Origin: an uncultured delta proteobacterium | GTDB taxonomy: Bacteria; Myxococcota_A; Polyangia; Polyangiales; Ga0077539 | DNA length: 64,000 nt | Reading direction: 5' to 3' | Assembly (NCBI GenBank): GCA_903845045.1 | Contig: CAIMWA010000340.1 | Span: 1,880-65,879 of the forward strand | In this document: one piece after another, positions 57,506-59,647 of the stretch | How positions within the stretch are numbered: the stretch's first letter is position 1 | Layout of the letters: each line of letters opens with the position of its first letter | Position numbers and translations under genes: made by a program | The notes under the pieces: model-generated | Databases searched by the model: none | What the model was told of the DNA's origin: nothing | Seen by the model: the letters and a program-made list of their open reading frames with translations, nothing else

Positions 57506-59647
57506 GTGCCGCCGCGCTGGACCCTCGCCGCGCCGTTCGTGCTGCGCCACGCCGGCTTCCCCTTCGATTGGCTCGTCGACCTCGGCTTCACCGCCGACAC
57601 CCTCGCGACCGTCGACGCGTGCCTCGACGACGCTGCCTCCGCGGCCCTTCGCATCGAGGCCGAGGCGCGCTTCGAAGCATCGGTCGTGGCATTGCGTTCG
57701 GCCCTCCACGCCCGCGCCGCGGACCCGTCGGTGCAGGAGGCCGTCTTCCTCTCGAGCCCCGACGTGCACGCCAACGTGTGGAGCCGCTGGGTCGCCTCCC
57801 CGCCCGCCGCGCCGTCGTCGCGTTCGCGTCGCACCGAGCGCGTCGTCTACGCGTACCTGCAGAGGCTCTGCGCGAAGAACGAGACCACGAGCTTCTTTGG
57901 TCCCATGGGCTACGCGGTCACCGAGGGCGACGACGACGCCGTCGAGGTGCGCTCCGCCGGGCCCTCGCAGCGCCGGACCTTTCTCGCGTACTGGGCCGTC
58001 GAGGCCTTGGGCTTCGCCATCGCCGCCGACGTCGCGCTCTGGGCGCAGCTCCCCCTCGCGCGCAGTCCGCTCTGGCGTCTCGACGTTCAGCGCGGCGAGG
58101 CACGCTGCGAAGCCATCGGCCGCATCGTGCCGCTCGGCCCCGCCGAGCTTCGACTGCTCGCGGCAGCATCGGCTCCGCGCACCGCCACCGACCTCACCGC
58201 GGACCTCGGCGTCGCCGTCGATGCCCTCGAGACCCTCGCGGAGCCGCTCTTCGCGACCGGCGTGCTGCTTCGACGACTGTGGTTCCGCAGCGACGAGGCC
58301 GACACCTTGGGCAACCTTCGCGCGGCGCTGCTCGCCCTCCCGCCATCGCCCGCCCGCTCGCGATGGGCCGCGGAGATCGACGCCTTCGACGCGCTCCGGG
58401 CGGCCTTCGAGACCGCGCCCTTCGCGGACCGTCCCGCGCGCCTGCGCGACCTCGAAGCGCGCTTCGTCGCGGTCACCGGACGACCCGCGCGCCGTGCGGG
58501 AGGACGGCTCTACACGGACCGGTTGGTCCTCAACGAGGAGGCCTCGTCGCCGTTCGGCCTGCGCGTCGGCGGCGGCGCCCTCGCGCGCCTCGGGACCGAG
58601 GTCTCGCCGCTGCTCGAACGCTGCGCCGCGCACGGCGACGCCTACGCCGAGGCCTGCGCGCGAGCGGTCGCCGCGGAGCATCCCGGGAGCGCGGGGTTCT
58701 TCGGCTGGGCATCGGCGCTTCGCGACCTGCCCGCGCCGACGGTCCCGACGGTCACCGACGATGCCGCCGCCCGCGACGTGCCCCGCTTCGCCTCGCCGGA
58801 CCTCTGCCTTCGCCTCGGCGACGACGGCGCGCTGCATCCTGTGCTGTCGAGCGTCCACGCCGTGCTGCTCACCGAGGGGTGGCTCTTCACGTTCCTTCCG
58901 CGCGTCGCAGGCCTCGCGGCGCCGGCCGAGGCGTGGGTGCGTCACGAGGCGGCGCCGGACCTGCTCTCCCTCGCCACGGGCCGCCACAACAAGGGCTACT
59001 ACGCGTTCCCGGGACCTCGCGCCGCAGCGGCGCCGGCGGAGCTCGCTGCGGGCCCGCACGACGTCGTGGCGGCGGCGGACCTCACCGTCTCCGTGGAGTC
59101 TGGAGCACCGGTCCTTCGCGACGCAGCGGGTGGACGGCGCTTCCTCGCGCTCCCGCTCGCGGACCTCACGCTGCACCCTCCGTTCGTCGCCCTCGCCACG
59201 CCCCCGGCGGTCTTCGCGACGGTCGGCGCCGGCACCGCGCACACCCCGCGCGTGTGCGTCGGTCACGCCGTATACCAACGCGAGCGATGGACGCTGGGCG
59301 CCGCCGCGCTGCGGGCCGCGACGCCGTTCCAGCGCTTCGTGGCGCTACGACGCGCGCGGCGCGACCTCGGCCTGCCGCGCTTCGTCTTCGCGCGCGTCGA
59401 CGGCGAGCGCAAGCCGTTCCTCGTCGACGTCGAGAGCCCCTTCGCCGCCGAGCTCCTCGCGCACCACGCGCGCGACGTCGACGCCGTGCGCCTCGAAGAG
59501 ATGCTCCCCGCGCCCGACGAGCTGTGGCTCCGCGACGCGCGCGGCCGGTACACCTGCGAGCTTCGCGTACAGGCCCGACGCGAGGTGCCCGAGGACCCGG
59601 GAACCGCTCGCTCCGTCGCGCCTCGCTGCGGTAGCGTCGCACCGTGA
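57506..59647 (+). CDS. Lantibiotic-dehydratase (LanB) N-terminal-domain-like protein lacking an elimination domain (PEARL-like / split-LanB-like)
   Basis: GTG at 57506, 6 nt after the upstream stop. 713 aa. Motifs in LanB order: APFVLRHAGFPFDWL; PSVQEAVFLSSPDVHANV; RVVYAYLQRLCAKNETTSFFGPMGY (position of the R-x-TPFG block); TPRVCVGHAVYQRERWTL; GLPRFVFARVDGERKPFLVDVESPFAAELL; VRLEEMLP. No SpaB_C-like region follows. Confidence 0.65.
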   Translation: MPPRWTLAAPFVLRHAGFPFDWLVDLGFTADTLATVDACLDDAASAALRIEAEARFEASVVALRSALHARAADPSVQEAVFLSSPDVHANVWSRWVASPPAAPSSRSRRTERVVYAYLQRLCAKNETTSFFGPMGYAVTEGDDDAVEVRSAGPSQRRTFLAYWAVEALGFAIAADVALWAQLPLARSPLWRLDVQRGEARCEAIGRIVPLGPAELRLLAAASAPRTATDLTADLGVAVDALETLAEPLFATGVLLRRLWFRSDEADTLGNLRAALLALPPSPARSRWAAEIDAFDALRAAFETAPFADRPARLRDLEARFVAVTGRPARRAGGRLYTDRLVLNEEASSPFGLRVGGGALARLGTEVSPLLERCAAHGDAYAEACARAVAAEHPGSAGFFGWASALRDLPAPTVPTVTDDAAARDVPRFASPDLCLRLGDDGALHPVLSSVHAVLLTEGWLFTFLPRVAGLAAPAEAWVRHEAAPDLLSLATGRHNKGYYAFPGPRAAAAPAELAAGPHDVVAAADLTVSVESGAPVLRDAAGGRRFLALPLADLTLHPPFVALATPPAVFATVGAGTAHTPRVCVGHAVYQRERWTLGAAALRAATPFQRFVALRRARRDLGLPRFVFARVDGERKPFLVDVESPFAAELLAHHARDVDAVRLEEMLPAPDELWLRDARGRYTCELRVQARREVPEDPGTARSVAPRCGSVAP

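Follow-up and report, generated by a model that had tools for sequence, protein, structure and literature searches.

A probable tryptophan-modifying gene cassette with an encoded C-terminal tryptophan and a single AmmB3-position PEARL in an uncultured delta proteobacterium

What does a LanB-like protein do when it consists of the glutamylation-type domain only? This question is raised by an open reading frame (ORF) near the end of a 64-kb stretch of DNA from an uncultured delta proteobacterium (contig CAIMWA010000340.1 of assembly GCA_903845045.1, positions 1,880 to 65,879; the whole stretch of 64,000 nucleotides is called the window below). A preliminary description of the ORF had proposed a ligase role like that of the PEARLs (peptide aminoacyl-tRNA ligases). 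Our analysis shows that the gene is the last of a four-gene cassette at 54.7-59.6 kb (Table 1), which probably modifies tryptophan on a carrier peptide in a short-circuited version of early ammosamide/lymphostin/bha-type (pyrroloiminoquinone) biosynthesis. The scaffold peptide gene and the gene of an AmmC1/BhaC1-class (C1-like) protein were absent from the preliminary description and were found in the follow-up analysis.

The window has a GC content of ~73%, at which long spurious ORFs are common, and genes were therefore called by third-position GC. The ORF in question begins with GTG and has a GC content of 0.79, 0.57 and 0.89 at codon positions 1, 2 and 3, a signature of coding sequence. 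The identical 713-aa product was called by gene finders in four independent metagenome assemblies. Pfam returned Lant_dehydr_N alone (E=1.5e-19; 70 bits, cutoff 28). NCBIfam and a single-sequence search of the PDB with phmmer gave no match, indicating that the protein is divergent. An AlphaFold model was built from a 38-sequence family alignment (A1) and reached a predicted local distance difference test score (pLDDT) of 90 and a predicted TM score of 0.88. In a Foldseek search of the PDB, this model matched the glutamylation domains of TbtB (E=5e-24, TM 0.68), MibB, GodF, NisB and MadB, with E values from 5e-24 to 4e-18 and TM scores of ~0.61-0.68 on the query; weaker matches were to glutathione-synthetase/ATP-grasp structures. 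TbtB was also the sole match in a family-profile search of the PDB (E=6e-13). The N-domain fold accounts for the whole model, which spans about half of a full-length LanB, and Pfam detected no Lant_dehydr_C/SpaB_C elimination domain in the protein or in the 46 genes called across the window. Thus, the earlier reading of a LanB-like protein with the glutamylation-type domain only, and without an elimination protein in the window, was borne out by domain content and by fold; the motifs quoted for it are all present in the translation, in the LanB order claimed. Relatives are 700-775 aa long and N-domain only. They come mostly from Myxococcota and in some cases from actinomycetes, and their public labels are "lantibiotic dehydratase" or "hypothetical". 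The nearest relative that is not identical shares ~54% of its residues.

PEARLs and split LanBs can be told apart by a small set of residues. Asp542 and Arg803 of TglB are conserved in PEARLs only, their counterparts in split LanBs being Tyr and Leu; R743, F783 and E851 of TbtB are common to both groups, and one His is highly conserved in PEARLs (PMC11117183). We mapped the TglB and TbtB residues onto the window protein by alignment and spacing, and scored conservation in 107 PEARL paralogs collected from related loci. D432 is the equivalent of TglB Asp542 by alignment and is kept in all 107 paralogs. R687, the equivalent of Arg803, is kept in 105/107, as is the E685-x-R687 pair, and H451 is conserved in 106/107. 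R592 and E685 are each conserved in at least 105 of the paralogs, F628 pairs with TbtB F783 in the profile alignment, and E685 lies approximately at TbtB E851, judged by spacing after the EEMLPAPDE/EEALPDPAD block. The PEARL ATP-binding residues, for which the preliminary description had suggested an alignment check, are thus present as the Asp/Arg pair. A KNETTSFFGP block that had been considered unusual is real and pairs with KTSPYSTFTSMG of TbtB, but it is unusual only against lanthipeptide LanBs and is common among PEARLs: K124, E126, T127, F131, G132 and P133 are kept in 98-106 of the 107 paralogs, in every paralog clade. The block is a family motif and no oddity. Together, the sequence comparison supports assignment of the window protein as a PEARL rather than as a split-LanB dehydratase.

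If the protein were the glutamylation enzyme of a split LanB, serving a lanthipeptide- or thiopeptide-like pathway with the elimination partner encoded outside the window, this would agree with the closest solved structures, TbtB and GodF, which are both split LanBs, and with the presence of Ser/Thr in the scaffold peptide described below. However, Asp432 and Arg687 stand where split LanBs have Tyr and Leu, and besides the lack of an elimination domain in the window there is no fifth gene common to the sister cassettes. In addition, the conserved part of the peptide is its C-terminal AIPAHQxW and not its Ser/Thr residues, the peptide is free of Cys, and the gene regularly co-occurs with a Trp-oxidase family. 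We consider a split-LanB system hardly credible and refer to the protein as the window PEARL.

To place the PEARL in its gene context, 134 loci (numbered with the prefix L) were fetched and searched with the proteins of the window operon. In the closest clade (~50% identity), which comprises metagenome-assembled genomes (MAGs) of Myxococcales and Polyangiaceae, the loci encode a small peptide, a DLH-family hydrolase, a 615-aa protein and the LanB-N protein. These sister loci have only those four genes in common, and the flanking genes differ in every locus. In the window, the gene of the 64-aa scaffold peptide shows a coding signal in the frame plot and gene callers detected it in assemblies L137-L139. 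A small ORF, often missed by gene finders, directly precedes the DLH gene in every sister locus. The sister peptides are variable at the N-terminus and end in AIPAHQ(S/N)W. When AmmA*-Trp and BhaA-Ala-Trp were included in the alignment (A2), Leu42, Pro59 and the terminal Trp were invariant, with Leu42 in an amphipathic helix and Pro59 exactly five residues before the terminal Trp. The window peptide is near-neutral, contains no Cys and has Gln-Asn before the Trp. No canonical ...APLA scaffold peptide was found in the window; the actinomycete ...LDEIENRIAPLA peptides conform to LEEIEDKVAPLALA, the motif conserved in PEARL scaffolds (PMC11962472). In the characterised pathways a PEARL (AmmB2 or BhaB7) attaches the terminal Trp, whereas in the window scaffold it is encoded. 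The AT-rich leader just 5' of the scaffold gene is possibly a promoter or ribosome-binding region; no sigma-70 consensus was found in it or at the cassette edges. The DLH orthologs are ~50% identical and hold the same position in all sister cassettes, the one in L087 being 42% identical. DLH is absent from amm/lym-type clusters.

The 615-aa protein matched no Pfam or NCBIfam family, and its homologs are annotated as tetratricopeptide repeat (TPR) proteins. BhaC1 and AmmC1 form a TPR-containing, flavin mononucleotide (FMN)-dependent class that trihydroxylates a C-terminal Trp; BhaC1 has no recognisable flavin-binding domain, and BLAST returns only proteins of unknown function or TPR proteins for this class (PMC9850906). 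The sequences of AmmC1, BhaC1 and the Myxococcus fulvus homolog were rebuilt from the supplementary alignment of that paper and are partial (~400 residues) with reading errors. Measured against these sequences, and thus with approximate identities, the 615-aa protein shares 36% identity with the BhaC1 homolog of M. fulvus (SI Fig. S8, PMC9850906) across 389 aa (E=6e-28). For its L004 ortholog and AmmC1 the value is 32% across 392 aa (E=2e-21), and AmmC1 reaches ~50% identity with the actinomycete loci. The family motifs are kept in the 615-aa protein (APNQRRLFRESEQ versus APSSRRRLH(R/K)ESEQ; CDLVSLR), as is a Lys equivalent to BhaC1 K391, the residue that cross-links to oxidised Trp. In the structural model (pLDDT 91), a TPR superhelix follows an alpha/beta domain at the N-terminus, and the fold matches are TPR proteins.

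Which reaction the PEARL might catalyze was judged from its position among the paralogs. In the amm cluster, Amm6 is AmmA, the LanB-like proteins are Amm8, 9, 11 and 18, and Amm9 is AmmB2 (PMC8210675). This numbering agrees with the gene order of the actinomycete loci, which consist of an acidic peptide ending in ...IAPLA(LA), a 615-like protein, two LanB-N proteins, a 480-550-aa protein and a window-like LanB-N protein; the pattern was found in five Salinispora species, Streptomyces, Kitasatospora, Actinomadura and others. The Myxococcus/Archangium pattern has a LanB-N protein, an unknown protein and a window-like LanB-N protein, with a 615-like gene nearby. From the order of the numbers we infer that the window-like gene is at the Amm11/AmmB3 position and that Amm11 is AmmB3; orthology to AmmB3 would thus follow from synteny and the published gene numbers. 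AmmB3 uses Gly-tRNA to attach Gly at C7 of the oxidised indole (PMC12424672), and BhaB5 attaches it at C5 (PMC12424672, PMC11117183). In a neighbour-joining tree of the 107 PEARL paralogs the clades sort by gene position, and the window protein groups with those of L004, L006 and L040 in the Amm11-position (third-position) clade, in agreement with the best-hit classification. The clade-specific residues N495, Y499, L454, L551 and P559 (34/34 in this clade) are all present in the window PEARL. N495 and Y499 belong to an RNKG(F/Y)Y motif; a further marker of the clade is an ARVHHH segment, where other clades carry a Glu equivalent to TglB E564. Because the enzyme lies in the AmmB3-position clade, aminoacyl-tRNA-dependent amination of an oxidised Trp indole appears likelier than C-terminal ligation. 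The earlier PEARL-like assignment held as to family, on account of D432/R687, the absence of an elimination domain, and the scaffold and C1-class partner, although the reaction is probably a different one from C-terminal ligation. Note that the 480-550-aa family has no Pfam match and is always located between the AmmB2- and AmmB3-position PEARLs in the actinomycete and Myxococcus loci (L001 6370-8004; L003 6565-8004; L087 4163-5665, the Amm10 position); it is absent from the window cassette.

PEARLs were classified in every locus with a findable scaffold peptide. Six of these loci have a scaffold with an encoded Trp: the window, L004, L006, L040 and L082 from Myxococcota, and the independent L054 from a Kineosporiaceae MAG. 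All six have exactly one PEARL, which is of the AmmB3-position class. In contrast, 2-7 PEARLs are present in each of the loci whose scaffold ends in APLA/APLALA, with or without a short non-Trp tail (23/23). In L054 (7074-15853) the acidic scaffold ends in ...IAPLALAWT, an encoded Trp plus one residue; the trailing Thr would need to be removed before C1 action. The gene order there is FMN reductase, scaffold, C1-like, PEARL, DAO-family oxidase, flavin adenine dinucleotide (FAD) monooxygenase and RimK-like ATP-grasp. The DAO family is that of the glycine oxidases Amm14 and BhaG, which process the glycine adduct in amm and bha, and in M. fulvus (L001) a DAO gene lies downstream of the window-like PEARL. 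The acidic scaffolds of L057, L058 and L106 carry two extra residues after APLALA (HT, QV and TA), which fits a published remark that C-terminal extensions are trimmed before PEARL action.

Combining these observations, the following pathway may be proposed. Translation yields a 64-aa scaffold with Trp as its last residue (...AIPAHQNW), as seen in the sequence. The AmmC1/BhaC1-class TPR protein would, by family membership, bind the amphipathic helix and hydroxylate the indole of the C-terminal Trp, and the hydroxylated indole would oxidise to the hydroxyquinone. By clade membership, the PEARL would use ATP to phosphorylate the vinylogous carboxylate of the quinone, and attack by the amino group of an aminoacyl-tRNA would place a nitrogen on the indole ring, as with AmmB3/BhaB5 and Gly-tRNA. 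The DLH-family hydrolase might help to cleave the adduct and so finish the amino transfer, or free the modified Trp from the scaffold, which is the weakest step of the scheme. Since the Trp is encoded and there is no Trp-adding PEARL, the scaffold could not be recharged and would therefore be consumed stoichiometrically, like the precursor of a peptide made on the ribosome and modified after translation (RiPP). More specifically, we tentatively put forward as plausible a distinct encoded-Trp route, in which the C1-class protein oxidises a ribosomal Trp, a lone AmmB3-class PEARL uses an aminoacyl-tRNA solely as nitrogen donor, and DLH replaces glycine oxidase and TldD/E.

Several points weigh against a Trp-modifying pathway of the pyrroloiminoquinone type. 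Every chemical step rests on homology, and the paralog tree is a simple neighbour-joining tree without bootstrap. BhaC1 needs Leu-Ala ahead of the Trp and rejects Asn (PMC9850906); as the window scaffold ends in Gln-Asn-Trp, substrate recognition must differ. The window PEARL has SSVHAV in place of ARVHHH in an active-site-proximal segment (residues 449-453, ~nt 58850-58864), whereas (A)RVHHH is read by 29-32 of the 34 clade members and the closest sister, L004, has ARMHHQ. This divergence might be the mark of an altered specificity for the aminoacyl-tRNA or the substrate. The DAO-family gene is absent from the 64-kb window and is not shared by the sister cassettes. More generally, no glycine oxidase, quinone reductase or TldD/E-type protease was found in the window, all of which are needed in amm/bha. 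The chemistry after the PEARL step may differ, or it may use enzymes encoded elsewhere.

The same observations bear on whether the window PEARL is instead a canonical, C-terminal-extending enzyme that couples a further residue to the carboxylate of the terminal Trp, whether or not this Trp has yet been oxidised, as BhaB4 (Asn) and AmmB4 (Arg) do. Such extension is the commonest PEARL activity, and both of these enzymes work on Trp-modified scaffolds. The window protein has the full set of PEARL catalytic residues, S449, A452 and V453 depart from the AmmB3-clade consensus, and a glycine oxidase, as noted, is lacking. However, the protein groups with the Amm11-position clade and not with the distal (AmmB4-like) clade, it shares the residues specific to the former in all 34 members, and in the single-PEARL locus L054 a DAO oxidase follows the PEARL of the same class, as expected for indole glycylation. 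We therefore regard C-terminal extension as unlikely, though it deserves attention, and favour nitrogen transfer to the oxidised Trp.

Immediately downstream of the PEARL lies a gene for a BufB-class MNIO (an oxidative enzyme dependent on multinuclear non-heme iron), whose GTG start overlaps the PEARL stop in a GTGA at 59644-59647. This junction recurs in four assemblies, and no terminator was found between the two genes; the stop/start overlap suggests that the MNIO may be co-transcribed with the cassette. In a sister strain, the MNIO (96% identical to that of the window) is preceded by a gene of 563 aa and then a VTT gene of 188 aa, and is followed by a DUF2063 gene of 292 aa and a 260-aa gene on the minus strand. 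The flanking genes are the same in the window, with a 5.1-kb cassette between VTT and MNIO. The cassette (~54480-59640) thus corresponds to an insertion/deletion difference of ~5.1 kb, with boundaries defined at the gene level; the gap between VTT and MNIO in the sister strain is ~50 nt. At the cassette edges only GC-rich chance repeats were present, and no flanking repeats, integrase or transposase were found. Relatives of the MNIO number in the thousands, of which more than 100, in Polyangiales-type MAGs, are 72-85% identical, unlike the cassette, which is sporadic. The DNA of the window itself probably comes from a Polyangiales-type myxobacterium. Among the loci examined, an MNIO stands beside a LanB-like gene only in the window's own population.

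The MNIO scored 313.8 bits against the NCBIfam BufB equivalog (cutoff 310). DUF2063 partners go with signal-peptide precursors, while the TglH MNIO belongs to a separate cluster with another type of partner, and Buf2-type precursors are 51-367 aa long with 6 Cys, ~16% of them being lipoproteins (PMC12452194). A TglHI system would combine a TglH-class MNIO, a non-DUF2063 'PME-type 2' partner and a precursor without signal peptide; the MNIO here is BufB-class and the partner is DUF2063/HvfC_N. In the convergent 257-aa protein, a lipoprotein-like signal (LLCFAPGC) is combined with a linker rich in Ala, Asp and Pro and with a Cys-rich domain at the C-terminus (HPHCGGMNSCSGFSF...HNCASLNTCTGYSC). 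The protein matched no Pfam family; its Cys-rich domain gave a weak match to BufA2 (E=0.027), as did that of the L135 ortholog (E=0.005). Both L135 and the sister strain have it conserved next to the MNIO pair, and it is probably an unannotated Buf2-like precursor in unusual orientation. The MNIO, the DUF2063 protein and the 257-aa protein form a separate, self-contained bufferin-type unit, a neighbour and not a member of the cassette.

From the stop/start overlap we had first suspected a Tgl-like system, in which a single peptide is the substrate of both the PEARL and the MNIO/DUF2063 pair, on the model of TglB and TglHI in 3-thiaglutamate biosynthesis; for instance, the PEARL might add Cys and the MNIO might modify it afterwards. 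That precedent and the recurring junction speak for it. The candidate was dropped on four grounds: synteny, as the sister strain keeps VTT, MNIO, DUF2063 and the 260-aa gene without the cassette; the lack of an adjacent MNIO at other PEARL-bearing loci; the BufB/DUF2063 class, which acts on signal-peptide precursors; and the MNIO's own candidate substrate, the Cys-rich product of the conserved convergent gene. Furthermore, the MNIO has its many relatives at 72-85% identity whereas the nearest relative of the PEARL is at ~54%, and the scaffold peptide offers no Cys. Joint action of PEARL and MNIO is thus very unlikely.

PEARL pathways are defined by the attachment of an amino acid to a reusable carrier; the window cassette encodes the amino acid instead. 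Absence of the Trp-attaching PEARL goes exactly with an encoded Trp (6 versus 23 loci). This amounts to a natural experiment on which pyrroloiminoquinone-type steps are dispensable, and it shows that an AmmB3-class PEARL can stand alone. If the encoded-Trp route is correct, Polyangiales-type myxobacteria would make an undescribed Trp-derived aminoquinone, free or peptide-bound, with consumption of the scaffold blurring the line between RiPPs and pearlins, and the shortcut would have arisen independently in an actinomycete (L054). As the cassette is small (a 64-aa peptide and three enzymes), its product could be worked out with little effort. The ...LxxLxxQI...AIPAHQxW sequence would provide a second, non-acidic recognition tag for the protein labelling that is being developed with BhaC1, by conversion of C-terminal Trp to a quinone. 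Predicting PEARL function from sequence has been named by the field as an open problem, and RNKG(F/Y)Y, the RVHHH segment and loss of the Glu equivalent to TglB E564 are candidate markers that distinguish indole-aminating from C-terminus-extending PEARLs. For annotation, all family members in public data bear one of the two labels given above, and the scaffold gene is often missed by callers.

Table 1. Features of the cassette and of the adjoining downstream unit (positions in the window).
Feature	Position	Strand	Evidence
AT-rich leader, just 5' of scaffold gene	54620..54726	+	Composition: gattggaggtcccaagatcgatttcgtatggggaatttaagggaaaataatcg in DNA 73% GC overall
64-aa scaffold peptide MSNIQ...SAIPAHQNW, encoded C-terminal Trp	54727..54921	+	Frame plot, conservation, A2
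DLH-family alpha/beta hydrolase, 230 aa	54935..55627	+	Pfam DLH E=1.4e-32
AmmC1/BhaC1-class TPR protein, 615 aa	55652..57499	+	Homology, motifs, model
PEARL, LanB glutamylation-type domain only, 713 aa, Amm11/AmmB3-position clade	57506..59647	+	Pfam, fold, tree, residues
BufB-class MNIO (PF05114, E=1e-95)	59644-60465	+	Pfam, NCBIfam
DUF2063 (HvfC_N) protein	60462-61340	+	Pfam
257-aa lipoprotein-like Cys-rich protein, convergent	61319-62092	-	Signal, weak BufA2 match

Elsewhere in the window, overlapping genes at 528-1093 (+) encode a Phd/YefM antitoxin and ParE toxin pair. A 1922-aa fusion at 3184-8952 (+) combines Ser/Thr kinase, AAA_16 ATPase, GAF, HisKA and HATPase domains and is followed by a response-regulator/cyclase and then a lone receiver domain. 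At 19939-23417 (-), a DUF1552 (HXXSHH) protein adjoins a DUF1585/1587/1588/1592/1595 (PSD/PSCyt) protein with a CBM60 module, a pair typical of Planctomycetes and Myxococcota. Two paralogous type-B carboxylesterase genes, at 37370-39100 (+; Pfam COesterase, E=1e-107) and 62189-63961 (-; E=3e-100), are separated by 23 kb; assemblies L137 and L138 also have the second one, conserved next to the MNIO unit.

How, then, does the cassette compare with known systems? TbtB and GodF are the best structural matches of the PEARL and share its adenine-binding Arg/Phe and Glu; the window protein differs from them in having the PEARL-type Asp and Arg, no elimination partner and another gene context. With AmmC1/BhaC1, the 615-aa protein shares sequence homology, family motifs, the K391-equivalent Lys, TPR architecture and a gene that adjoins the scaffold gene. 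Its substrate, however, is near-neutral and ends in Gln-Asn-Trp, whereas theirs are acidic and end in Leu-Ala-Trp, and its first family motif is altered (NQRRLF versus SSRRRLH). Tree, best hits and clade-specific residues place the window PEARL in the paralog clade of AmmB3 (Amm11)/BhaB5, which it also resembles in its set of catalytic residues, in its C1-class partner and in a scaffold substrate whose C-terminal Trp is preceded, five residues earlier, by a Pro. It differs from them in being only 35-41% identical to the actinomycete clade members, in the divergent SSVHAV, in being the sole PEARL of its cluster, and in lacking an adjacent glycine oxidase or quinone reductase; in relation to the amm/bha pathways as a whole, the window clade is set apart by its DLH hydrolase and the absence of DAO.

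In conclusion, all components belong to known families, and it is in architecture that the cassette differs: its Trp is encoded, it has a single PEARL, DLH stands in place of oxidase and proteases, and the scaffold is non-acidic and ends in Gln-(Asn/Ser)-Trp. No description of clusters with the encoded-Trp architecture was found in the searchable literature, although there may be an earlier mention. As in the pearlin pathways (TglA/TglB, AmmA/AmmB2, BhaA/BhaB7), a LanB-like enzyme that depends on tRNA would build an amino-acid-derived structure on the C-terminal end of a ribosomal carrier. In contrast to these pathways, the amino acid to be modified is encoded and not appended, and the scaffold would be RiPP-like and not recyclable.

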